Origin: a phage
Reading direction: 5' to 3' (one strand)
Sequence record: PZ171032.1
DNA: 64,000 bases
Part shown: piece by piece, positions 1,344 through 62,094 of the stretch
Layout of the letters: every line of letters starts with the position of its first letter
How positions within the stretch are numbered: the first letter of the stretch is position 1
Notes under the pieces: generated by a model
The model's database searches: none
Seen by the model: the letters and a program-made list of their open reading frames with translations, nothing else
Told to the model about the DNA's origin: nothing
Position numbers and translations under genes: made by a program

Positions 1344-2643
1344 TTAAGGTCGGGGCAAGTTTGTAATAACGGAAGCCACCACCACCTTGCCAGTTTACAG
1401 ACTTAGAAATACCACCTTGATCTTCCCCATCGATCACTTTTTCCAAGCGCGGAATAATATGGGTATGGCAATGATCACCAATCTCGATGGAGATCCAACG
1501 TCTTTTCATCTTGTGAGCTACAGCGGCAGTAGTTCCCGAACCACCGAATGAATCCAATACCAAATCACCTTCTCGCGTACACATTTCGAAAATCCGCTTC
1601 AAAAGCGCTTCTGGTTTTTTCCCATTTTTGAAACTAACGCCGCCTTCATTTGCTATTCCATTCCAACTAATGTCTGTCCAAACATCAGTTATTAGTTCCG
1701 CAGGTTGCATATCACCGTCAATTTCCAAAAGCCTGTTGGAGTAAAAGACCATTTGCCTACCATTTGCGATATAAAATCCTTCAACATCCTCATTTGGATG
1801 TACATAAACCTTATCCCTATCTTTCTTTGACTTCTCTATAGTTTCTTTTCTCTTTATTTTAGCACCACCACCAATTGCAACAGATTGAAATACACGTTCT
1901 GCATTATCAATTGCAAATTGTGCTAATTCATCATCGAATGTGTCAGGCAGTTTTTTCTTGGCTTCTTTTGCATCTTTATAGCCATTGGCCTTTGCAAACG
2001 CATCGGCAATACCGCACCACGTCCAATTTTTATAATGATCATCCGGGTTTAATAGGTATTTGTTATATCCGGTATCATAACCTTTAGGTATATAGATTTT
2101 GTTAAGCGGTTTCTGGGTGCGATCTTTTGCATATACAAGCAAAAAGTTTGCTGTGGAGAAAACTGTGGCTCCTGTTGCCTTAAATCCCGAAGGGGAATTT
2201 GTGGTCATCGATATGGTATTTAACTGATTTGCACGACCAAAAATCTCGTCCATCAAAACTTTTAAATACGCCATTTCGCAATCATCTAAGTGAACGAATA
2301 TTACCCCGTCATCACTTAGAAGATTACGAATTATTTCTAACCTATCCCTCATTAAGCCCAGCCAAATGGAATGCTCCAGACTATCATCGTAGTGCTCAAA
2401 AGCCCTCCCGGTGTTGAATGGTGGGTCTATGTAAACACACTTCACTTTGCCTGCGTACTCTTGCTCTAGCGCCTTCAATGCTAATAAGTTATCTCCAAAA
2501 ATCAGCTTATTATCAAAAATATCGTTTTCGGTAACTCTCTGGCTGTGGTAAGACTTACTCGAATCTTCTAACAAAATGTGCGGCTCTAATTTTTTGCGCT
2601 CGTTTTTACCTATCCAGGTAAGTTCTAATTTGGTTTTGCTCAT
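1318..2643 (-). CDS. DNA methyltransferase, N6-adenine/N4-cytosine family, beta-class motif order
   Basis: Catalytic motif IV 'YIDPPFNTG' precedes AdoMet-binding motif I 'LDSFGGSGTTAAVA' near the C-terminus, with a long intervening putative target-recognition region; AAGGAGAG Shine-Dalgarno upstream. Confidence 0.85.
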   Translation of the reverse strand: MSKTKLELTWIGKNERKKLEPHILLEDSSKSYHSQRVTENDIFDNKLIFGDNLLALKALEQEYAGKVKCVYIDPPFNTGRAFEHYDDSLEHSIWLGLMRDRLEIIRNLLSDDGVIFVHLDDCEMAYLKVLMDEIFGRANQLNTISMTTNSPSGFKATGATVFSTANFLLVYAKDRTQKPLNKIYIPKGYDTGYNKYLLNPDDHYKNWTWCGIADAFAKANGYKDAKEAKKKLPDTFDDELAQFAIDNAERVFQSVAIGGGAKIKRKETIEKSKKDRDKVYVHPNEDVEGFYIANGRQMVFYSNRLLEIDGDMQPAELITDVWTDISWNGIANEGGVSFKNGKKPEALLKRIFEMCTREGDLVLDSFGGSGTTAAVAHKMKRRWISIEIGDHCHTHIIPRLEKVIDGEDQGGISKSVNWQGGGGFRYYKLAPTLIAKDKSDQ

Positions 2644-2670
2644 CGTTTGGTGCTCTCCTTAGTTTTTTGT

Positions 2671-2687
2671 GGGGAGGAGGCCTCCCC
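2671..2687. other. GC-rich stem-loop between the 2705..3046 gene and the methyltransferase gene
   Basis: ggggagg / cctcccc 7-bp inverted repeat; on the minus strand it is followed by an A-run, not a U-run, so it is not a canonical terminator. Confidence 0.3.
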
Positions 2688-2704
2688 TTTATACTCACAT
2701 CTTA

Positions 2705-3046
2705 CTACTCAAGGTCTTCAGAGTCAAGCTCAAAAAGAATCAAACTGTGCATGCCTGCAGAGAGATCAACACACCCTGCAACAATAAGGGTCTGATAGTA
2801 AGGTTCAGCACCCTCGATGTCTTCGTTAAAATCCACAACAAGGTAGTCACCTTTGTTAAAGGTGTATTTGTCCGATGTGAATGCAAAACCTGCCCAGTCC
2901 CCTACTGCAGGATCTTTATCAGTCACCTTTGTTAGCAGTAGATCTTTTTCACGAGATCTTTTAGTAAAATCGTGAATCACAACATCCTTCTCTTCAGGAG
3001 TTGGATTGCCACACACGTAGTTAACGATATTTCTCCACAAACTCAT
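2705..3046 (-). CDS. hypothetical protein
   Basis: 113-aa ORF; its start overlaps the helicase stop. Confidence 0.55.
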   Translation of the reverse strand: MSLWRNIVNYVCGNPTPEEKDVVIHDFTKRSREKDLLLTKVTDKDPAVGDWAGFAFTSDKYTFNKGDYLVVDFNEDIEGAEPYYQTLIVAGCVDLSAGMHSLILFELDSEDLE

Positions 3047-8107: not shown

Positions 8108-8127
8108 AATGACTCCAAATAGAAAAT

Positions 8128-8143
8128 CCCCGCCGAAGCGGGG
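8128..8143 (-). terminator. rho-independent terminator after the 8157..8537 gene
   Basis: ccccgc-cgaa-gcgggg hairpin followed on the minus strand by ATTTTCTATTT; the same hairpin sequence recurs at 34562 and in near-identical form at 40373. Confidence 0.6.
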
Positions 8144-8546: not shown

Positions 8547-9731
8547 TTAAGCTTTAGCCAAAATGGCGCTAAACTCTTCACCAAACTCTTTTACAATCTT
8601 CATCAGGTTTGGGTATGCTTTGATCAACTGAGCAACAATCTTGTCACGCCCTTTACCGATAAGCAAGGCATTTCCTAAGGCGTTAGGTTTCATCATCGCC
8701 ATAAAGACTGAGAATACAAAATCTCGGTTCTCGTCCTTGAAATTTTCCCAAAGGAAATCGAGGAAGTTTGCCACACAGCTAACAAGATCTTCGTCGGAGA
8801 TACTTGCATTTTCCATCATATTGCGAATAGCGATACAACCTTCAGATCCAAGAATCCACAAAATGTCTGGCTGCTTAGGACCTACGTATTCTTTGCAGCC
8901 ACCTGCCATAATCCGACCGATTTCCGGTAAATTACGTTTCTTGGTGTGGTAAGTCCAGATCTCTACCGCTGCAGTGTGACCAATAGCACCTTGTAGAAGA
9001 ACACGGGCCATAGCGTCAGAAATAATACCGCTGTCAAAATCGTGCAAGATGTCAGATGCAGCAACCCAAGATCGCGGTGTGGCAAAAGATGGACAATTAA
9101 TCTCAGCCATAGCCTCATAATTATCAATAGCTGAGGGAACTCTTTTCAAATATCCAATTACAGAGGAATGCACCCCATTAAGGAATGCGTAGTCCTCAAT
9201 AAACACCTCTGCATTGCTTGTAACCTCTACAATGATAAAACGGTTAGCCAGAGGGGCTTCGAGCGCCGAAAGAACCGCACCATCTGTAGAACGGTTACCC
9301 GCAGCCACAAAAACAGAACCCTTAGGGAATGCATAGGTGCCGCACTTGTGGTCAAGCATAATTTGCATTGCAACCTTTTGCAGGTAGTTATCTGCATGAG
9401 TGAGCTCATCCAGAAAGATAATTCCGCTCCAGTCAGGATCCGCAGGCCAAAATTCTGGAATTGCAAACACTGTACGTGTAGTTCCATCCGCTTCTACAGG
9501 GATAGGTAGCCCAGATAAGTCGGCAGGATCTTTATCTGACAGTCGCACGTCAACAAGGTTGTCATCTCGCTCACCGAACATATTATCAGCGATCTGCTTC
9601 ATCACCTGGCTTTTACCCACACCCATTGGTCCCAAAATTAGGACAGATCGGCTATGACGTTGGGCAAACTGAATAATAGCTGGCAACTCACGGACAGTGA
9701 TTTGACCACTTTCGAATACGTTTCTTGACAT
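8547..9731 (-). CDS. AAA+ ATPase, MoxR/CbbQ-like
   Basis: Walker A 'LGPMGVGKSQ', Walker B 'IIFLDELTHAD'; size and layout typical of MoxR-type ATPases that partner with VWA proteins. Confidence 0.78.
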   Translation of the reverse strand: MSRNVFESGQITVRELPAIIQFAQRHSRSVLILGPMGVGKSQVMKQIADNMFGERDDNLVDVRLSDKDPADLSGLPIPVEADGTTRTVFAIPEFWPADPDWSGIIFLDELTHADNYLQKVAMQIMLDHKCGTYAFPKGSVFVAAGNRSTDGAVLSALEAPLANRFIIVEVTSNAEVFIEDYAFLNGVHSSVIGYLKRVPSAIDNYEAMAEINCPSFATPRSWVAASDILHDFDSGIISDAMARVLLQGAIGHTAAVEIWTYHTKKRNLPEIGRIMAGGCKEYVGPKQPDILWILGSEGCIAIRNMMENASISDEDLVSCVANFLDFLWENFKDENRDFVFSVFMAMMKPNALGNALLIGKGRDKIVAQLIKAYPNLMKIVKEFGEEFSAILAKA

Positions 9732-10000
9732 TAGTAAAAGTCCTCTACTTGTGTGTAAGTGTTTTCAAAGTTTTCCAAAACAGATATCACATCGAATCTG
9801 TCAATATCATACGTGACTCTCCAGTTGTACGCAACCCTTTCTGCTGTTGCCTCTTCTGGCGCTAGTCGTCTGCTGGCATAAAAGAGTGTTGGAGTACACT
9901 TTCTTGCTTGCCCTCTAACTTTCCCATAATAATATCTGTGAATATCTTTGTCAAAATTTAACTCTTTTTCTGCACGAAGTTCATATTGCTGGTATAACAT
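9731..10000 (-). CDS. hypothetical protein
   Basis: 89-aa ORF; stop overlaps the MoxR start (translational coupling). Confidence 0.5.
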   Translation of the reverse strand: MLYQQYELRAEKELNFDKDIHRYYYGKVRGQARKCTPTLFYASRRLAPEEATAERVAYNWRVTYDIDRFDVISVLENFENTYTQVEDFY

Positions 10001-10044
10001 CTCTACTACTCCTTAAGCAGCATCCTTGCCGCCATTCCTGCCCA

Positions 10045-10425
10045 CTAAAATGCAGTCCGAATCCAGACAAGGTTCTTATCTGCCCAATCATAGAGGCAAG
10101 TCATTGCACTATTGAATTGCTCACACGGAGGATAATCTTCTTCCATCTGGCGCATAGCAGAGCCTTGTGGGTAAAGCTCCCGTGCTGCAAACCACGCGTC
10201 GTAGTCATCAACGGTGTCGAAGTAGTATACAACATCCTCTAACTCAGGATCGAACTTTGAACTATCAGGATCCAGTTGTTCAGGGAACTTGGAGCGTAAC
10301 TTGCCAGCTACAATACTTGCCAACTCGCTAACATGCTTATTGTCCCACTCCACTAGCTTCCCGTCTTCAGTGATGCGTCCTAACCACTGATCATGAAGGT
10401 CAACTGTTGTCTTCCACTGGGCCAT
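10045..10425 (-). CDS. hypothetical protein
   Basis: 126-aa ORF with AAGGAG Shine-Dalgarno downstream for the next gene. Confidence 0.55.
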   Translation of the reverse strand: MAQWKTTVDLHDQWLGRITEDGKLVEWDNKHVSELASIVAGKLRSKFPEQLDPDSSKFDPELEDVVYYFDTVDDYDAWFAARELYPQGSAMRQMEEDYPPCEQFNSAMTCLYDWADKNLVWIRTAF

Positions 10426-10427
10426 TA

Positions 10428-10685
10428 TCAGTCCACCTCTTCTTCTCGTTGTAGTTCAAGATACCCGTAGGTCTGGACATCTTCAAGGGTGTGGAACTCC
10501 CCATCTGCCGCTAATGCACGAACAACTTGGCACAAAACCTTATGAGGAACTTCATCCAGACCAAGATTCAGTGCAGGGAACACCTTATCTAAGTCAACAA
10601 AATAAATGAACTGTAGCTCACCAGCTTCAAAAGGTGTATCTTCAATAAACATCTTCTCGGCATTAGTCAAGATCTGCACTTTCAT
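10428..10685 (-). CDS. hypothetical protein
   Basis: 85-aa acidic ORF. Confidence 0.5.
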   Translation of the reverse strand: MKVQILTNAEKMFIEDTPFEAGELQFIYFVDLDKVFPALNLGLDEVPHKVLCQVVRALAADGEFHTLEDVQTYGYLELQREEEVD

Positions 10686-11041
10686 TATTCTACCTCCTCT
10701 TCTTTTTCTTCGGCATTAGTTTCATGGCTACCCCACTCCGGAGTTTCCACCTCGATAGTAAACTCACGCACTACACGGTAATTGCCCATGAAGCGCTCTA
10801 CTTCGTCAAGGCTTATGGAGAGGCCATTGGCAACCAGGTCTGCAGCACCCTCTTCTACCAGGTAGTCCAGATTGGCTTCCAGAGCCTCAGGTTCAAACCC
10901 TGTCAATGCAATCAGATAACCTTCCCCTTCATCAGGGAGGACAATACAGCCCAATTGATTTTCTTTAAAAAGGCAGTGACCATCATTATTGATTGGGTGT
11001 TCATTGCAGTAAATAGCTGCACGATAAGTAACTTTAGACAT
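10685..11041 (-). CDS. hypothetical protein; start re-assigned to the ATG of MSKVTYRA
   Basis: The ORF-track start at 11062 has no ribosome-binding site; the ATG at 11039-11041 is preceded by AAGGAGA at 8-nt spacing; the first 8 codons lie inside the 29-bp inverted repeat. Confidence 0.55.
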   Translation of the reverse strand: MSKVTYRAAIYCNEHPINNDGHCLFKENQLGCIVLPDEGEGYLIALTGFEPEALEANLDYLVEEGAADLVANGLSISLDEVERFMGNYRVVREFTIEVETPEWGSHETNAEEKEEEVE

Positions 11042-11046
11042 CGGTA
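11018..11046. repeat. 29-bp perfect inverted repeat, copy A
   Basis: tgcacgataagtaactttagacatcggta is the exact reverse complement of 12880..12908. Confidence 0.85.
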
Positions 11047-11054
11047 AGGTCTCC

Positions 11055-11333
11055 TTAGGCAATTGTCATTTTACATTCTTGAAATTTTAACACAAGACGG
11101 TGATTGTGTCTAGTGTCTAAAAAGATTTTTTCAACCATCAGGCACACGGTATAACCGTCCATCTTGTTGACAACAAAATCTCCAGGATGAGGGAGGATGT
11201 CTCCCGGATTGGGGAAACATAGTCCACTCAGAAAGGCATCGTCAGTGGTGGACTTAATAGATTTCCACACACTGTCTGCCTGAACATGTTCACCGACGTA
11301 ATATACATTACCACATGCCTTCATCATAGTCAA
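11055..11333 (-). CDS. hypothetical protein
   Basis: 92-aa ORF; start overlaps the upstream stop. Confidence 0.5.
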   Translation of the reverse strand: MTMMKACGNVYYVGEHVQADSVWKSIKSTTDDAFLSGLCFPNPGDILPHPGDFVVNKMDGYTVCLMVEKIFLDTRHNHRLVLKFQECKMTIA

Positions 11334-12229
11334 ACCCTCGCATAAATTAAACTTGTATCAGTATACTTCTTTAATGGGTAAATATCCTGTCCATAGATGC
11401 AATCATTAAACACCTCATCTACCCAAAGGCTACACTTATATCCCATCATTTCTAAAACACCCATCTCTTCTTCGGTAAACTTATCACCGCTCTTGCAAGA
11501 TGTCAATACCTCATTCTGAACTCTTGCTACCTCGAAGCGGTTATTGGCAATATCGCTATTGGCGATCAAATACTCACCTAGAGGGTGTGCGGCATTAAAG
11601 ATGCACAGTGGACGGCTGACGTAATAGTCTCCGGGTGTATAAAAATTGTTGAGGTCTTTCACTAGAACATTCTTATCAGTCACTTCATTTATAACATCAT
11701 GCATATCGCACATCTTTATATGTTTGAGGATTCCATCCCCCATCACAAAATAAAAACTTGCTGAGACACTTTCGGCATAGATCTTACTAGATCCGTTGTA
11801 GTTGTATTTTACTCGGATGCTAACGGGGGTTTTTCCTGTCGCGTTAGCCATCATCCAAAGAAATGGCAGCTCATACTTCTCCTCTGAGGAAACAAAAGGT
11901 GAGGTAGCCAGAGATCGAAAACCTCCAGAGAAGTTGAAAGTTACAGAACCGCTCCGGCGGTATGATACCGCGTATTCTACTTTTATATCGACATACCCAT
12001 TGGAATAGGTGTGTCCTTCATTATCTAAATATGTCCACTTATCAGACCCAGATACCAATCTACGCTCAATAACCTTCATCACTATAGGAATTAATGGGTT
12101 GGTACAAACCGCTTTTGAAGTAGCTTTATCATCTAAAGCCTCGTAAATTGCAGAAAGGATGTCCCCAGCTGAAAGATTGGTTGTTATGTCCTGTTTCCAC
12201 CGCGTACTAAAACTGTTAAGATTTGCCAT
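11330..12229 (-). CDS. hypothetical protein, first gene of the minus-strand early unit
   Basis: 299-aa ORF; AGGAG Shine-Dalgarno 9 nt upstream; sits directly downstream of a sigma70-like promoter. Confidence 0.6.
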   Translation of the reverse strand: MANLNSFSTRWKQDITTNLSAGDILSAIYEALDDKATSKAVCTNPLIPIVMKVIERRLVSGSDKWTYLDNEGHTYSNGYVDIKVEYAVSYRRSGSVTFNFSGGFRSLATSPFVSSEEKYELPFLWMMANATGKTPVSIRVKYNYNGSSKIYAESVSASFYFVMGDGILKHIKMCDMHDVINEVTDKNVLVKDLNNFYTPGDYYVSRPLCIFNAAHPLGEYLIANSDIANNRFEVARVQNEVLTSCKSGDKFTEEEMGVLEMMGYKCSLWVDEVFNDCIYGQDIYPLKKYTDTSLIYARV

Positions 12230-12269
12230 AAGTAAGTGCTCCTATGTTAGTTTTCTTTCGAATGGGTGC

Positions 12270-12298
12270 ACTATATTGTGGAGTTAGAGTAAAGTCAA
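12270..12298 (-). promoter_or_regulatory. sigma70-like promoter for the minus-strand early unit
   Basis: On the minus strand: -35 TTGACT (reverse complement of 12293-12298), 17-bp spacer, -10 TATAGT (reverse complement of 12270-12275). Confidence 0.55.
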
Positions 12299-12311
12299 CA
12301 CGTTTTTGATG

Positions 12312-12340
12312 TTGACATCTGTTGAGACAATTGATACGAT
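12312..12340 (+). promoter_or_regulatory. sigma70-like promoter for the plus-strand unit
   Basis: -35 TTGACA at 12312-12317, 17-bp spacer, -10 TACGAT at 12335-12340; its -35 box forms an inverted repeat with the -35 of the divergent promoter. Confidence 0.4.
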
Positions 12341-12371
12341 TTCTTCACTTACAGAGCACGAGAGACGACTC

Positions 12372-13349
12372 ATGAATCTTGAAAAATATTATACACCAGA
12401 AGAGTTAGAGCGCTTGCTCAAAAAATATAGACGCAAACAGAATAACGCACGGAAACGAGATATAGAGTTCGACCTGTCATGGGAAGAATACCTCCTATTT
12501 GGTAAAAAACTTTTAGGAGATGGAGTATGCGACTATACCCTTATACCTTTTGACATGCACACAGATGAAAACGGGCTGGGGAATCCTTTCTACCCATCTC
12601 TGGAGCGGATAGATGATGAAGGTCCTTATGCGGTTGATAACTGTTGTGTGGTGGGATTGAGATGCAACTCTCTAAAGGACTGTCTGGTAGATAAAAAGAC
12701 TGCAGTCTTGATTAAAGACGAAACTGATCGAAAAATTGTCCAGCAGATGATGCTCCACCTGAGCGAAGAGCGTATGGAGAAATTGAAAGGTGATTATACT
12801 TTTGAAGATTTCATCTTGCAATATGGAACGGAAGAGGATAAACTAGCACTCTTTGACGAAGAAGAGGAGGAAGATATGCTACCGATGTCTAAAGTTACTT
12901 ATCGTGCACCCAAGAAGCACATTTCCGACATTGTAAACGAGCCTATCACAGAAGAGATTGAAGAAATGACGCAACAGGTGCATGAAGAGGAAAAAGAGAC
13001 TCAGGAGGTCGAAGAGGAGATTACAGAAGAGGTTCCTGCACTACCTGATGATGTTGAGATTGCCAAAGCTTACACTTTCTATTGTCAAACGTTCTACGAT
13101 GTAGGTATGAAAGTTGATCTGTCGTTCAGCCAATTTAAGAGTTCGTATATTCGCAAATGCTGTGCTTTAACTGGTGAACGTCTTGGAGCTGGACTTAAAC
13201 CCCTGTTGGTGACCGACTGGAATAAAGGTTTCACTAAAGGAAACTTTATGGTAGTATCTCCAATTATGGAGAAAGCTATGACAGATCTTATGAAGACCAC
13301 CCGCATGACAATGACCGAGTTGGCAGGTATTTTCAAACACGTTAAATAA
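12372..13349 (+). CDS. hypothetical protein with acidic linker; possibly two fused modules
   Basis: The ORF-track TTG start at 12306 lies upstream of the promoter -35; the first ATG after the promoter is 12372 (MNLEKYY); an internal 'MSKVTYRA' at 12884 lies within the 29-bp inverted repeat and is preceded by GAGGAGG. Confidence 0.55.
   Translation: MNLEKYYTPEELERLLKKYRRKQNNARKRDIEFDLSWEEYLLFGKKLLGDGVCDYTLIPFDMHTDENGLGNPFYPSLERIDDEGPYAVDNCCVVGLRCNSLKDCLVDKKTAVLIKDETDRKIVQQMMLHLSEERMEKLKGDYTFEDFILQYGTEEDKLALFDEEEEEDMLPMSKVTYRAPKKHISDIVNEPITEEIEEMTQQVHEEEKETQEVEEEITEEVPALPDDVEIAKAYTFYCQTFYDVGMKVDLSFSQFKSSYIRKCCALTGERLGAGLKPLLVTDWNKGFTKGNFMVVSPIMEKAMTDLMKTTRMTMTELAGIFKHVK
12880..12908. repeat. 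29-bp perfect inverted repeat, copy B
   Basis: taccgatgtctaaagttacttatcgtgca is the exact reverse complement of 11018..11046. Confidence 0.85.
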
Positions 13350-13361
13350 TGACAGGGGCCA

Positions 13362-14843
13362 ATGGCCCCTTCTGGAGTTTTAATGGATAGCAGAAGTTCA
13401 GAAATCATTGCCTCGCAGAAAGATGATGCCCTGAGAATGTTGCAGGCTGCACGTATGTATCTCCTTGAAAAGCTGCCGTTTTATGGCACACTACTGTCAG
13501 GGTTGCAGTTCGTAGAAAACCACACATGGTGCTCCACCATGGCAACCGACCATAAACGCATCTATTACAGTCCTGAGTTCATTATGGGATTGGCTGATGA
13601 GCGCAAGGCTATTCTTAAGGCTTCTCTAACTGACGAGCAGTTTGAGATGGCTGAAGTTTTCTATTCCCCAAAATCTGTGAAAGAGGTGGCCTTCCTTCTG
13701 TCACATGAGGTGGGGCATATTATCTGTGATCATCTAGTCCGTGGTAAAAGCTTTGAGCCGGAACTGTTCAATATTGCTTGTGATCACGTTATCAACACAG
13801 GCCTTGTGGTTGACTTTAGCAAACCTCCTTGTGTTTTCTTCCCGAAGGGGAAAAGCACTACGTTCATGAAAGGTAAGCCTTTTGGCTTCTTAGCCAGCTG
13901 CTACTGTGACATGAGGTTTCATGGATGGATTGCTGAGAACGTTTATGCAGTTCTTGATAAGCAAAGAGATCAGAATAACGGTAAAAGTAAGAACGGTAAA
14001 GGTGAGAACTCTCAAAGTGATAAGCGACAAACCGATGATCACATGAGTGGGAACGGTGGCACCAGTGATAATCTTGGAAAGGCTATGGGGTATGATCAGC
14101 CACAACCTGTAATCAGCCAATCTGATAAAGATCAGGCCATGCAGGACTCTGGTGATATGCTGGAGGCAGCAATGCAAGCTTCCGGAGGTCGTTGCCCTGA
14201 GGCGGTGCGTGAGTTTGTCAAGAACAGGGGTAAGCCTGTAATCAACTATATAGACATCATTAAGCAACGCATGTTGTCTAAACGAAAGGCTGAACTGACC
14301 TACAGAAAACCTGGTCGCCGATCTGGGTCTTTGACCAGCACAATGCGAAAAGTTGGGGCTATAAACAAGAACCAGCACGTTATTGTTCCCGGTCGTAATC
14401 CGGAAAACACCATAGATATTGTTGTAGCTTTAGACGTTTCTGGCTCGATCTCTCAAAGAACTTTAAAGAAAATGTTCAATGAAATCACCGGATTGTGCAA
14501 TCTGTATAAAGAGTTTAAGGTTACAATGTTCTGTTGGTCAACTGAGGTTGGAGAGGTTAAAGTATACACTCGCGGTAACATAGATGAGATGATCAACTAT
14601 GAGGTCCACTCAACATGGGGCACAACAGCTGCTTGCGTGTTCGAGTATCTAGATGCCAACATACCAAATGCAAAAGATGTCATCGTATTGACCGACCTAT
14701 ACTTTGAGCATAACTTTGAACAAAAGGCTGTTGACAACAAGTGGAAAAAGTACGATACTTTATGGGTTCTCACCGAAGGGTATAATAAAAATTATATCCC
14801 TAGCTTTGGGAAAACTGTGGAATTAATCGAGTACGCTAAGTAA
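13362..14843 (+). CDS. metallopeptidase-like (HExxH) plus von Willebrand factor A domain protein (DUF2201-type layout)
   Basis: 'LLSHEVGHIICDH' zinc-binding-like motif in the N-terminal half; C-terminal VWA MIDAS motif 'VVALDVSGSIS'; this layout commonly partners with MoxR ATPases. Confidence 0.72.
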   Translation: MAPSGVLMDSRSSEIIASQKDDALRMLQAARMYLLEKLPFYGTLLSGLQFVENHTWCSTMATDHKRIYYSPEFIMGLADERKAILKASLTDEQFEMAEVFYSPKSVKEVAFLLSHEVGHIICDHLVRGKSFEPELFNIACDHVINTGLVVDFSKPPCVFFPKGKSTTFMKGKPFGFLASCYCDMRFHGWIAENVYAVLDKQRDQNNGKSKNGKGENSQSDKRQTDDHMSGNGGTSDNLGKAMGYDQPQPVISQSDKDQAMQDSGDMLEAAMQASGGRCPEAVREFVKNRGKPVINYIDIIKQRMLSKRKAELTYRKPGRRSGSLTSTMRKVGAINKNQHVIVPGRNPENTIDIVVALDVSGSISQRTLKKMFNEITGLCNLYKEFKVTMFCWSTEVGEVKVYTRGNIDEMINYEVHSTWGTTAACVFEYLDANIPNAKDVIVLTDLYFEHNFEQKAVDNKWKKYDTLWVLTEGYNKNYIPSFGKTVELIEYAK

Positions 14844-14858
14844 GAGAGGAGGTTATTT

Positions 14859-15122
14859 ATGGCAACAGAGTTAAAATTTGCATCAAACCGTAAAACTAAG
14901 AAGTATCTGTCCTCAGTAGCTCCAGGCACTGTGGTGATGTTTGTTGATGAACTTGGGGATGTGAATACAGCACTTGTTGTAAAATCACATCCTGCAAACA
15001 TATATGTTGGGGTATTTGACCTGTTCAGAAAGGTGTTTGTAGAACTGCCTCACAGTTTGGTTGTTACAGAAATGGATGCCTGCATAGAAATTCTTGGCGA
15101 AGTTATGGTGGAGGAACAATAA
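14859..15122 (+). CDS. small hypothetical protein, member 1 of a 4-gene tandem paralog array
   Basis: 87 aa; shares a G-T/E-VV...ELD.KI.ILGE pattern with the next three ORFs; GAGGAGG Shine-Dalgarno. Confidence 0.6.
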   Translation: MATELKFASNRKTKKYLSSVAPGTVVMFVDELGDVNTALVVKSHPANIYVGVFDLFRKVFVELPHSLVVTEMDACIEILGEVMVEEQ

Positions 15123-15385
15123 TGGCTACCAGCATTGTATTCAATTCTAAGGTGAAGAACAAAAAGCGTGCAGACAGTTTTCCGTGTGGGACCGTGGTAA
15201 GTTGCGACGGAGACGGCATTCAAAACATAGTTATGATTGTCAAAACAGGAGAACATTGTGTGTGGGGGTTCGATTTAGAAAATAATGAGTTGTACGATCT
15301 GCCGCCAAACATGAAAGTTACAGAGCTTGACACCAAAATTACCATCCTTGGAGAGACAAGCTATTCAAAAGAAGGAGGAGAATAA
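15122..15385 (+). CDS. small hypothetical protein, paralog 2
   Basis: 87 aa; start overlaps the preceding stop (TAATGG). Confidence 0.6.
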   Translation: MATSIVFNSKVKNKKRADSFPCGTVVSCDGDGIQNIVMIVKTGEHCVWGFDLENNELYDLPPNMKVTELDTKITILGETSYSKEGGE

Positions 15386-15648
15386 TGACCACAAAAATCA
15401 CTATCGCAGAACCGAAAGCTAACACTCAGCCTATCGAAAAGTTTAAGTGCGGTGAGGTGGTAACATTCACACCAGATAATGAAGATGCTAAGATTTTCGC
15501 AATGGTCACAGCTGAGTGGATGTGTGACAACACCACACAGGTTCTGCGTTTTGACACCTATCTTACCGATGAAATCAGGAACGACAAGATTGTGACTGGT
15601 GTGGATACTGAGATTGTTTTCTACAAGAGCTTTTTAGAGGGTTTCTGA
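15385..15648 (+). CDS. small hypothetical protein, paralog 3
   Basis: 87 aa; start overlaps the preceding stop (ATAATGA). Confidence 0.6.
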   Translation: MTTKITIAEPKANTQPIEKFKCGEVVTFTPDNEDAKIFAMVTAEWMCDNTTQVLRFDTYLTDEIRNDKIVTGVDTEIVFYKSFLEGF

Positions 15649-15649
15649 T

Positions 15650-15883
15650 ATGGCAAAAATTAGAAAATTATCTAGCAATCAGGTTGTGAAAGACTTCGAA
15701 TCTGGAGAGATTCTTTATGTTCGTGATGCAGATGACGAAGGTGAAGATCTCGTTATGTTGGTGGGGCACGCTGAGGACGGATGCATCCAAGCTGTTTTTC
15801 TTGAAACAGCTATGGTGCACTGGATAGAGCTGGACCTGAAAGCACGAAAACCTAAAGCAGAAATCCTGATTTACGAAGATTAA
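15650..15883 (+). CDS. small hypothetical protein, paralog 4 (more diverged)
   Basis: 77 aa; keeps the central Gly, acidic patch and hydrophobic C-terminal pattern. Confidence 0.55.
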   Translation: MAKIRKLSSNQVVKDFESGEILYVRDADDEGEDLVMLVGHAEDGCIQAVFLETAMVHWIELDLKARKPKAEILIYED

Positions 15884-34543: not shown

Positions 34544-34561
34544 TCTGAGCATAAAAATAAA

Positions 34562-34577
34562 CCCCGCCGAAGCGGGG
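34562..34577 (-). terminator. rho-independent terminator
   Basis: ccccgc-cgaa-gcgggg hairpin followed on the minus strand by TTTATTTTTAT. Confidence 0.65.
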
Positions 34578-40360: not shown

Positions 40361-40372
40361 TACAAACAAAAA

Positions 40373-40392
40373 GCCCCCGCCGAAGCGAGGGC
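40373..40392 (-). terminator. rho-independent terminator
   Basis: gcccccgc-cgaa-gcgagggc hairpin (one mismatch) followed on the minus strand by TTTTTGTTTG. Confidence 0.5.
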
Positions 40393-43300: not shown

Positions 43301-44212
43301 CCCTAAGTTAATGCGTGCACCTGCGGCATCTCTGGCCCCAGTACCGCCTTGCTCTATAGCAAGAGGTTGCCACGAAGCTGTTTGTTGGTTCCACATGCCC
43401 CAACGGCCTGTTGCATCAAGCTGCAAGTACCCTGCTGTGTTTAAATCATCTCCAGCACGGATAACTGTTCTTGTTGGGTTGTTTGCCTCTAGGCGTTTAA
43501 ATTCATCACGAAGTGCTATTCTTTTTGTTGTTGCTACACCGTTGGTTACTGCAATGGTATACATGGCTCCGGTGGTAGCGCCACGGAAAATACCATCAAC
43601 AGTTGTAGTATCACGACGAGATACCACACCATTCAGAAATTTTTCACCAGCTGCTACAGAAGGGTAGTTGGTAGTTCTTCCCTCTTCAATAACTGCAGGA
43701 CCAACAAAGTTATCAAGGTGAATAACATCACCTACAGTGTGCACTGTACCAAAATCTACACGCTGTGCAAGTGCTTTAGCATCGTTAGCTGTCTGAACAG
43801 TAACATCCATTACATCCTGGACAGACTGCCCTTCGGCTGTCATAATCATAGATGCACCAATGGTAGATTCCAGCTCCTCCCTTAGGGACGGGTCAGTATA
43901 TACCATCCATGCAGCGTCAGTAATCCCACCATCTGAGTACGGTGAAGACAATGCAGGAACAGTGTGTGGAAATTCGCCTTTCCAACGCAGGTAGAGGTCT
44001 TCCTCTTCGAAGTAGGCAAAATCCATTGGGCCGTTTAACTTACCACCTTCCTTAAAGGAGATTACATGAGAAACAGTCCCATCAACATGGACAACATCGC
44101 CAATTTTTACACGACGGGTCAGGTCTGGTTGTTGAACAACCAGGTAATCATCCTCTGTCACTGCGGTAGTGGCAGGAAGAGATTCAATTCTGACAACTTT
44201 AATATCAGCCAT
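40400..44212 (-). CDS. tail fiber/tailspike (1270 aa) with C-terminal intramolecular chaperone domain (peptidase S74-type)
   Basis: C-terminal 'NQNSDRDLKDNIEVIPNALEAIRKMKGYTYTLKENG...AGVIAQEVLEALPEAV' matches the autoproteolytic chaperone signature (SDxRxK ... GxIAQEVxxxLPEAV); N-terminal ~100 aa homologous to the 46847..47515 product. Confidence 0.85.
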   Translation of the reverse strand: MADIKVVRIESLPATTAVTEDDYLVVQQPDLTRRVKIGDVVHVDGTVSHVISFKEGGKLNGPMDFAYFEEEDLYLRWKGEFPHTVPALSSPYSDGGITDAAWMVYTDPSLREELESTIGASMIMTAEGQSVQDVMDVTVQTANDAKALAQRVDFGTVHTVGDVIHLDNFVGPAVIEEGRTTNYPSVAAGEKFLNGVVSRRDTTTVDGIFRGATTGAMYTIAVTNGVATTKRIALRDEFKRLEANNPTRTVIRAGDDLNTAGYLQLDATGRWGMWNQQTASWQPLAIEQGGTGARDAAGARINLGAFYKQRAALEPNFNINNLTGNQDGVYYQPMTAYATEANGYPAGSGAGHLIVWQNNANGGTGCRQEYYPFSNVDVWYLRTYQANTNQWTSWQPMVRPRNDDTFRSHIGLGSRNSPTFGHLYLSQSSADVKSASGIVNGDKYSADGVLEHGYRIYSEVRNDNKAWLTIHLHKGAKGSETHRYLGFREDGVLDCPKYMQVGDLTGQLTNWGLGEWIRSSGAERGFWGSKKAAKMVIWDGGMDESGNGSLEWGVYNNRKAKWEPLPHAAGGTGATTLADAQNLFKVPIAAGVKDFLTLPRTAGMEDGKYYPIIVRTDPYYAPATGTDITLVTRSSSGGDPMNCATLQCHYRTGGWTDRGDSFYGVVNFYQNEKALLGMVAPTRGKQEYVAFYAEARAFPVSIYASRNVVEVFTREQDYQVGSVTNNQDGVKFVAPLQSADLNLAVLGDNNTNTRPIVDFKGTSGFYTGGGTQWHYIGTAERYAIMSKMNMPKVELWADGFDYLCYSGPRKALFSNAGFQCASDGTEDLTNGTFTSKCGNGAGLKGQAEFRSTPEAGQVIVRDVVGTAHRFYNFNKDGTFSAPGGFVCHTGGDWNNQFGPNNPSKIMAGNVNGPQDTMVVGGLSVGFSGNYAFQIAGRQSNLYTRSIEGGNHHPWNKAMQHRGQGLGTSDLDTYNGLWEGIYHQSANNDATYDRHYPVNEAGTLIVLQNNANNGNGCVQEYITYHGDRFIRYGNMVRQTFTWGPWTQTGGNGVSFRYGGTTPEGEIPTSELKVYISGSHVTNNGGNMPANSAHMHYWGNGSTGNRPNVLEFKVLDDSQSNWVWHCGTLPDKSRYLSVNGAVNCVSVNQNSDRDLKDNIEVIPNALEAIRKMKGYTYTLKENGMPYAGVIAQEVLEALPEAVSSFVQSKEIPNPDQDGTPLITEERFYSVDYAAVTGLLVQVCREQDDKITALEEQVKKLTEVVAGLQEKLK

Positions 44213-61116: not shown

Positions 61117-62094
61117 TTATTTGTTAGATTCTGCACGTGCACGAGCAAGTGCTTTTGCAACGTTTTCAGCAAGAATTTCTTCTGCGGATTTTGCAATATC
61201 ATCCACAACAGGTTCGCCATCATTACCATGTTCAGTGGTGGCAAACTCTTCTTTGGTTTTATGCACCTCTGCTTCCAGCTCTTCAATTTTTGCTTGAGCT
61301 TTCTCCAGCATAGCTACGATAGGTTCGTTAGCTTTTTCCAGCATGAAGTCAACCAGGGTTGCATGATCTTCTTCACCAACAAAGCTTAAAGCTTGAGCCT
61401 TAGTCAGCATTTTAGCTTTTTCAACTTCAACCTGGGCCTTGATGATTTCTTCAGCTTTACTCTGGGTTGCTTTCAGCTCTTCTACTTGCTTCAGCAGATC
61501 CAGATACTCTTTAGTTTTGGTTACGTCCACCGGATTCTCCTCGGTATTTGCGGATTTTGCAACATCATCCACCTCGGTAGTTTTATCCACCTCAGCAGGT
61601 TCCTGTACCGCCTTGATCAGGTTCCCTTCTTTATCGAAGAGATCAGCGGTTACTTGTTCAAAAATCTGTTGTGTTTTTAACAGGCTGTACTGATCTACCA
61701 CACTAAGCTGCTTGCCTTCTTTTGCAGCCTTATGAATGGTCACGTTATCACAACGCTCTTCCAGCCATGCAATACAAGACTCTGCGTCAGCTTGCGCCCA
61801 TTCCCAATCAGGATGCTCTTTAGCCCAAGCCTCCTCTTCAATCTCAAAACCAAGCATGTGTGCAAGTGCTTTAGCATCATCATACCACATATCGAAGAAA
61901 CGACGCAGGTATTCTTCAAAACTAAGCTCCACAGTAACTTGGCGAAGTGCCTTAACAATATCGTCTGTTAACTGCTCAGGCTTAAGATCACTCTTCATCA
62001 AAAGAGATACAGGTCTGTTGTTAGCGCTATAGCCTTGCGCCTTATGGCACAGGGCAATCCCCTTCTCTTTAATAGTAATCGTTTTTTCAGACAT
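61117..62094 (-). CDS. capsid scaffolding protein
   Basis: 325 aa, acidic and Ala/Glu/Lys-rich with coiled-coil character ('KIEELEAEVHKTKEE'); directly upstream of the capsid genes. Confidence 0.6.
   Translation of the reverse strand: MSEKTITIKEKGIALCHKAQGYSANNRPVSLLMKSDLKPEQLTDDIVKALRQVTVELSFEEYLRRFFDMWYDDAKALAHMLGFEIEEEAWAKEHPDWEWAQADAESCIAWLEERCDNVTIHKAAKEGKQLSVVDQYSLLKTQQIFEQVTADLFDKEGNLIKAVQEPAEVDKTTEVDDVAKSANTEENPVDVTKTKEYLDLLKQVEELKATQSKAEEIIKAQVEVEKAKMLTKAQALSFVGEEDHATLVDFMLEKANEPIVAMLEKAQAKIEELEAEVHKTKEEFATTEHGNDGEPVVDDIAKSAEEILAENVAKALARARAESNK

Follow-up and report, generated by a model that had tools for sequence, protein, structure and literature searches.

Why does one phage genome carry the same 29 nucleotides, start codon included, in two unrelated genes on opposite strands? 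The question arises in a 64,000-nucleotide (nt) stretch of phage DNA (PZ171032.1; hereafter, the window), which comes from an rV5-like coliphage of the genus Vequintavirus. One copy of the 29-mer, arm A (11018..11046, minus strand), spans positions -5 to +24 of a gene of 118 amino acids (aa) that we call gene A (10685..11041, minus strand). The other copy, arm B (12880..12908, plus strand), lies in frame within a 325-aa gene, gene B (12372..13349, plus strand), where it encodes (L)PMSKVTYRA. An original prediction, made from the letters of the window alone, offered three explanations: a recombination junction or module boundary, an internal translation start, or a shared regulatory target. Comparison with related phages points to a mutational scar. 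We give a probability of about 0.85 to arm B being a patch that was templated by the start of gene A, via a template switch or a microhomology-primed micro-conversion.

A perfect inverted repeat with arms 1.8 kb apart

The repeat is as the original prediction described it: two inverted arms of 29 nt, 100% complementary, at the positions given, with a spacer of 1833 nt between them. This is the longest pair of perfect repeats in the window, and a scan of the entire window that tolerated up to 3 mismatches found no copies of the 29-mer besides these two. A chance match had been called effectively impossible, and the numbers agree: the 29-mer had zero matches in 100 dinucleotide shuffles of the window, and an arithmetic estimate (~2e9 position pairs x 4^-29) gives an expectation of ~1e-8. 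Both arms cover an ATG and encode MSKVTYRA in frame (TACCG-ATG-TCT-AAA-GTT-ACT-TAT-CGT-GCA), again as claimed. Two details needed correction. The A of the ATG in arm B is at 12885, not 12884, and arm B lies inside the acidic linker of gene B, with acidic sequence on either side, rather than just after it.

A sequencing or assembly artefact could also produce such a pattern, as the original prediction recognized. The same arm B is present in 28 GenBank/RefSeq records that come from different laboratories and in a contig from a human-gut metagenome, so the repeat is not an assembly artefact. Together with the shuffles, this makes the probability of chance similarity or artefact negligible. The other concern was that independent isolates might have just one copy. 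This is the case for most isolates, including rV5, but 26 independent phages have both arms.

Gene B has a patched and an unpatched form

We aligned gene B from 14 genomes and compared the contexts of the two arms side by side in 20 genomes (the window and 19 related loci). Arm A is present at the start of gene A in all 19 of the related loci, either exactly or with 1-3 changes, and it also heads gene A in relatives whose gene B lacks arm B.

Gene B itself comes in two forms. In the unpatched form (rV5, JES2013, V18, I29, 10C2, ev147, ev158, FV3, SYGMH1, phita32, and two IMG/VR contigs), the linker reads ...GATATGTCACC(A/G)ATG-CAGGAYTTTAAAAAYTTCATGGCTR-ATCGTG(C/G)AGCC... and encodes ...DMSPMQDFKNFMA(D/N)R(A/G)AN.... 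The patched form (the window, Murica, inoa, nomine, Alma, A51.2, PMBT16, and ECP32) reads ...GATATGCTACCGATG-TCTAAAGTTACTT-ATCGTGCACCC..., so that 13 nt of gene A type (TCTAAAGTTACTT; 12888..12900, plus strand) stand in place of the 25 nt CAGGAYTTTAAAAAYTTCATGGCTR. The net change is a loss of 12 nt (4 codons), which preserves the reading frame. The T at 12880 of patched gene B is of gene A type as well.

The unpatched alleles already hold the blocks ACCRATG and ATCGTG(C/G)A(G), which are the same blocks that bracket TCTAAAGTTACTT at the start of gene A. The left microhomology in the window is ACCGATG (12881..12887, plus strand); the unpatched alleles have ACC(A/G)ATG, and rV5 and JES2013 have ACCGATG exactly. 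The right microhomology is ATCGTGCA (12901..12908, plus strand), to which correspond ATCGTGCAGC in unpatched alleles of the rV5 type (10 nt in common with gene A) and ATCGTGGAG in those of the FV3 type. Genes A and B match up to the very edges of the 29-mer, and the homology does not extend past them. Relative to unpatched alleles, positions 12880-12908 show ~12 aligned differences plus the 12-nt deletion, and the flanks are ~10% diverged.

The rV5-type and FV3-type linkers differ from each other, yet both contain ...ATGTCACCRATG-CAGGAYTTTAAAAAYTTCATGGCTR-ATCGTG(C/G)AGCC. Because two unpatched families with different linkers share the 25-nt version, the unpatched form is ancestral and the patched form is derived, with the copying having gone from gene A to gene B. 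On these alignments, arm B derives from the start of gene A by templated copying. The locus has the features expected of a templated mutation: the derived tract is short, an exact donor was already present in the same genome, and microhomology is found at both ends in both unpatched families. Furthermore, the donor is inverted, and an imperfect inverted repeat has become a perfect one.

How the patch may have formed

We propose that, in the ancestor of one gene B haplotype, a growing 3' end in the linker of gene B, ending in ...ACCGATG, dissociated from its template and annealed to CATCGGT, which lies 1.8 kb away on the opposite strand, at the start of gene A (11039-11045). Synthesis would then have copied at least 13 bases specific to gene A (11038-11026) and returned to gene B through the shared ATCGTGCA. 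Such an event would replace 25 nt by 13 nt in frame, change SPMQDFKNFMADRAAN to LPMSKVTYRAPK, and turn an imperfect inverted repeat (blocks of 7 and 8-10 nt) into the perfect 29-nt repeat. Inverted quasi-repeat pairs of 9+7 nt within 3 kb of each other number ~56-68 in any 64 kb of this composition, so the pre-existing microhomologies need no special explanation.

By sequence comparison, arm B is derived, the direction was from gene A to gene B, the flanking microhomology was there beforehand, and the arms have not been kept identical; the enzymology of the event is inferred. There are two candidate routes. A nascent leading strand might switch to the template of the lagging strand, roughly the length of one Okazaki fragment behind the fork, or microhomology might prime repair synthesis after a break. 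The donor could have been the same molecule or a co-infecting genome.

Phage T4 was the first system for which template switching between imperfect inverted repeats was proposed, and the process accounts for multi-residue replacements in yeast genes (PMC8604942). Template-switch mutations have been documented from bacteria to humans (PMC8604942, PMC7954356), and a four-point model describes them (PMC7954356). The closest named comparison is with the quasi-palindrome mutations of the Ripley model in phage T4, of rpsL and thyA in E. coli, and of CYC1 in yeast, and with the four-point model of Loytynoja and Goldman. As in those events, a single copying event off a nearby inverted sequence could account for both a cluster of changes and a change in length, each switch point has microhomology, and an inverted repeat that was imperfect is made perfect while several adjacent residues in a coding region are replaced. 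Unlike in those events, the arms in the phage are 1.8 kb apart, so that a switch across the fork or between molecules would be needed, and the copied tract includes the start codon of another gene.

The locus also resembles ectopic micro-conversion by microhomology-mediated break-induced replication (MMBIR) or of the synthesis-dependent strand annealing (SDSA) type, in which a short ectopic donor tract is copied after priming by 7-10 nt of microhomology and synthesis returns to the original locus. Distance and orientation are described as unconstrained in this process (PMC7954356; bioRxiv 10.1101/2023.08.09.552703). In contrast to typical MMBIR, the tract in the phage, at 13-29 nt, is at the very short end of the range, and the break and the enzymes would be hypothetical here.

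Several observations weigh against a templated origin or limit how precisely it can be described. Published short-range template-switch events span "tens to hundreds of nucleotides" (PMC7954356), versus 1.8 kb between these arms; the arms are not as close as a hairpin or a switch within one fork would have them, and a hairpin intermediate is therefore unlikely. An unpatched ancestor of the patched haplotype was not found among GenBank phages, IMG/VR, or JGI/ENA metagenomes, and the nearest unpatched allele is ~11% diverged. A gapped pattern built from the haplotype-specific flanks had 0 matches in IMG/VR and 1 match among metagenome contigs, which is patched. Also, the two bases that adjoin the 29-mer (C at 12879 and C at 12909) differ from gene A as well as from the known unpatched alleles. 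Given these unmatched outer bases and the missing direct ancestor, the exact switch points are uncertain. Finally, the patch, once formed, may have acquired a function. Most likely it is neutral, because it is located in a poorly constrained acidic linker.

The linker (12819..13037, plus strand; approximately aa 150-222) is hypervariable, and the patch lies in it between the two conserved domains of gene B. In outgroups from other genera (PVP-SE1, Av-05, and Seu621), both of these domains align well, but the linker is gapped and unalignable.

Distribution of the patched allele

A 60-nt probe across arm B identified the patched version in 28 of ~118 related records, which come down to 26 distinct phages when RefSeq/GenBank duplicates are counted once. 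A further 31 records match the probe through arm A only. Overall, arm B is absent from ~90 of the 118 relatives (~76%), rV5 among them. The human-gut metagenome contig (136,967 nt) carries the patched version, and the IMG/VR relatives of gene A amount to two loci, both unpatched. Over the 152 nt that follow the patch, all 28 carriers and no other records are at least 95% identical to the window; the closest of the rest reach 89%.

In five of the 28 carriers, the arms have changed independently of each other after the event. The sequence of arm A is TTGCCGATG in nomine, A51.2, and PMBT16; Alma has two changes in arm A; and in ECP32, both arms are altered, differently.

The patched haplotype does not track the rest of the genome. 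Phage inoa matches the window exactly over 12721-13019 and is ~89-97% identical to it left of 12721. I29 and 10C2 are 97-100% identical to the window in every 200-nt bin from 10600 to 12599 (I29 has no differences at 12300-12599), yet they have the unpatched allele. These patterns imply that ordinary homologous recombination has shuffled the linker of gene B. The recombination junctions appear to lie at ~12600, ~12720, and ~13020-13200, with none at the 29-mer. As read from these junctions, the patched haplotype is one that spread to different genomic backgrounds through ordinary homologous recombination.

Could arm B itself mark a module boundary, a point at which illegitimate or homologous recombination joined two gene segments? 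Gene B has a mosaic structure, and no part of the region diverges more than its linker: among the 200-nt bins, the one that covers the patch and the bulk of the linker (12800-13000) is the most divergent, with 73-83% identity to unpatched relatives as against 90-100% for most flanking bins. However, patched and unpatched alleles are orthologous to either side of the patch, the phylogenetic affinity is unchanged across the 29-mer, and the map of sequence differences places the junctions elsewhere than 12880-12908. We consider a module boundary to be highly improbable. Of the readings in the original prediction, recombination nevertheless comes closest, given the probable templated copying of the start of gene A.

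Two side observations concern recombination and gene B in these relatives. Sharp local mosaicism is seen at 11200-11400 and 12000-12300 among otherwise near-identical phages; for example, nomine, A51.2, and PMBT16 are 88% identical to the window in the 11200-11400 bin and 97.5-100% identical in the adjoining bins. In these alignments, the mosaicism of this early region indicates frequent short tracts of homologous recombination. Separately, the gene B orthologue of V18 (KY683736) is out of frame past approximately residue 17, and the coding sequence annotated for it (2211..3032) lacks the 5' end. Either the sequence contains an error or the gene is a pseudogene. The annotated coding sequence of gene B in Alma is likewise shortened at its 5' end.

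No sign that the intervening segment inverts

Perfect inverted repeats can be the crossover sites of an invertible segment, of the Hin/Gin type or driven by recombination. Inversion of the 1.8 kb between these arms would fuse residues 1-171 of gene B to gene A and would free the C-terminal half of gene B behind the Shine-Dalgarno sequence of gene A. The geometry suits this idea, as the arms are in the same frame in both genes and bracket a divergent promoter region, and the inversion products should be in frame. The Hin, Gin, and Cin invertases and the shufflons also use inverted repeats of ~26-30 bp that lie inside coding sequences or at their ends, and inversion there swaps protein parts.

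In contrast to those systems, the phage locus has no invertase gene, occurs in a single orientation in 116 genomes, and lacks one arm in most relatives. More precisely, all 116 records that cover at least 80% of positions 10000-14000 of the window, including all 28 carriers of both arms, align to it in one piece and on one strand, with no inversion of the 1.8-kb segment. Pfam and PHROG searches found no recombinase or transposase domain in the intervening or flanking genes. The segment itself is conserved while arm B is absent from most relatives. Also, 29 bp is near the lower limit for homologous recombination. An invertible segment is extremely unlikely on this evidence.

A mobile element with terminal inverted repeats was considered too. 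The intervening genes are conserved with or without arm B, and there is no transposase. Both the invertible segment and the mobile element were rejected because of the lack of a recombinase, the collinearity of the genomes, and the conserved interior.

Does the patch have a function?

Gene B would also yield a separate C-terminal product of ~154 aa if the patch gave rise to an internal translation start at 12885 or made an existing one stronger. The transplanted sequence comes from an authentic initiation region (its positions -5 to +24), with A-rich second and third codons, and it was placed between two conserved domains and downstream of a GGAGG run. On the other hand, all of the unpatched alleles have an ATG at the position of 12885 and another at that of 12876 (DMSPM), so the ATG predates the patch. 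The original prediction described a Shine-Dalgarno-like sequence before each copy. The one before gene A is real, but it was not copied along with the patch. The one before arm B (GGAGG, 12866-12870) is made up of Glu codons and ends up 14 nt before the ATG at 12885, and its spacing is better suited to the in-frame ATG at 12876. A comparable site is absent from homologues in other genera, and ~76% of the relatives do without arm B altogether. The comparative data are thus unsupportive of an internal start, which seems quite unlikely.

A shared regulatory target is the other functional proposal: the 29-mer might be a translational operator, or a site for a small RNA or a protein, that couples the expression of genes A and B. 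As the genes are divergent, both mRNAs carry the identical 29 nt in the sense orientation, including the start codon and eight codons. Translational operators of the T4 RegA type are shared across several phage mRNAs, and the 29-mer resembles such an operator in that it overlaps a start codon and occurs on two mRNAs. But the second site lacks conservation across the relatives, the two arms show no covariation, and no structure is apparent: RNA folding of the 29-mer and of both contexts was no better than for shuffled sequences (z = -0.05, -1.39, and +0.25). The 60 nt around and including arm B are identical in 27 of the 28 carrier records, in keeping with a shared site, but this uniformity matches that of the whole haplotype (98-99% identical). 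With arm B missing from ~90 of 118 relatives (rV5 included), the arms drifting apart in five of 28 carriers, and just two copies in 64 kb, a shared operator is very unlikely.

Taking the functional possibilities together, the transplanted initiation core could have given gene B a new property: internal initiation at 12885, which would produce a free C-terminal Srd-like domain; co-regulation with gene A via a factor that recognizes the 29 nt; or rare inversion, which would produce a B(1-171)::A fusion and a free C-terminal half of gene B behind the Shine-Dalgarno sequence of gene A. We consider this unlikely. If it were true, a template-switch error would have created a gene architecture that is retained in about a quarter of the known Vequintavirus isolates.

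What the locus illustrates

With a neutral scar as the favored explanation, the feature is the product of a known mutational process and an unusually long-range natural instance of it, rather than a new type of element or biological system. As a natural templated multi-nucleotide mutation in a phage, it is well resolved, as the donor, the recipient, the state before (~90 genomes), and the state after (28 genomes) have all been sampled. It suggests that templated events can act over 1.8 kb, and that a single event can replace a dozen residues, delete four, and give two unrelated genes eight codons in common (the first eight of gene A). Such a pattern is easily misread as a regulatory motif, a recombination site, or positive selection. 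The locus is a caution for annotation and for analyses of the ratio of nonsynonymous to synonymous substitution rates (dN/dS), and it is a candidate for measuring long-range template switching during phage replication.

Genes around the repeat

Over positions 10000-14000, the window is 99.6% identical to the phages pangalan, rV5_ev146, and Murica, among others. Gene A is the orthologue of rV5 gp008 and belongs to phrog_12908, a PHROG family without an assigned function. It is confined to the genus Vequintavirus, with matches in 117 records, each match starting from residue 1. Between the arms are two genes on the minus strand (11055..12229), the orthologues of rV5 gp009 and gp010 ("putative alpha-1,3-fucosyltransferase"), with no Pfam family and with PHROGs that lack an assigned function. 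A divergent promoter region (12230..12371) then separates the leftward unit (gp010, gp009, and gene A onward) from the rightward unit, whose first gene is gene B. This region has promoter-like sites on the plus strand (12312-12340) and the minus strand (12298-12270).

Gene B is the orthologue of rV5 gp011, which has been annotated as an "Srd-like anti-sigma factor" (PMC3606486). A Pfam search of gene A, gene B, and the intervening genes gave no match, and a single-sequence AlphaFold model of gene B was unusable (predicted local distance difference test, or pLDDT, of 34). The two domains of gene B have a motif in common (SLERIDDEGPYAVDNCCVV at aa 76-98 and PLLVTDWNKGFTKGNFMVV at aa ~279-301), and hhalign of the N-terminal versus the C-terminal domain aligned this motif, at only E = 0.057. 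Gene B may be an ancient internal duplication that is joined via the acidic linker.

RefSeq labels both gp011 (12372-13349) and gp012 (13383-14843) as "HNH endonuclease." For gp012, Pfam identifies DUF2201 metallopeptidase-like and VWA-like domains (E = 8.5e-28 and 3.3e-11, respectively). As for gp011, it has PHROG matches only, and these are to families of Srd, of "decoy of sigma70," and of endonucleases. It seems that the name HNH has been propagated rather than tested.

Other observations in the window and its relatives

Another repeat in the window is a perfect 20-nt direct repeat at 43764-43783 and 61859-61878 (reverse complement GATGCTAAAGCACTTGCACA), with a third copy, 80% identical, at 61142-61161. 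The two proteins in which it encodes DAKALA, a tail-fibre protein of 1270 aa and a head scaffold/decoration protein of 325 aa, are unrelated. We considered whether it might be a second recent patch and rejected this, as both contexts are conserved across the genus and show no sign of a recent event. In addition, a GC-rich hairpin (CCCCGCCGAAGCGGGG) occurs three times (8116-8143, 34550-34577, and 40363-40390) and is probably a shared stem of intrinsic terminators.

At 14859-15883 are four consecutive small open reading frames (three of 87 aa and one of 77 aa) that abut or overlap by 1 base. They are similar in length and share the N-terminal pattern MAT..K...K, and the first has no Pfam match; they look like a tandem array of paralogues. 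An AAA-type ATPase is encoded at 8547-9731, with weak matches to Pfam AAA families that are below the cut-off. This ATPase and the DUF2201/VWA protein (13383-14843) resemble a MoxR-VWA-like pair, in opposite transcription units ~3.6 kb apart.

Lastly, 16-18 GenBank records of "Campylobacter phage" (MG0656xx, with Campylobacter jejuni given as the host) are 93-99% identical to rV5-like phages of E. coli over the regions that we queried. These look like mislabelled or contaminating coliphages.

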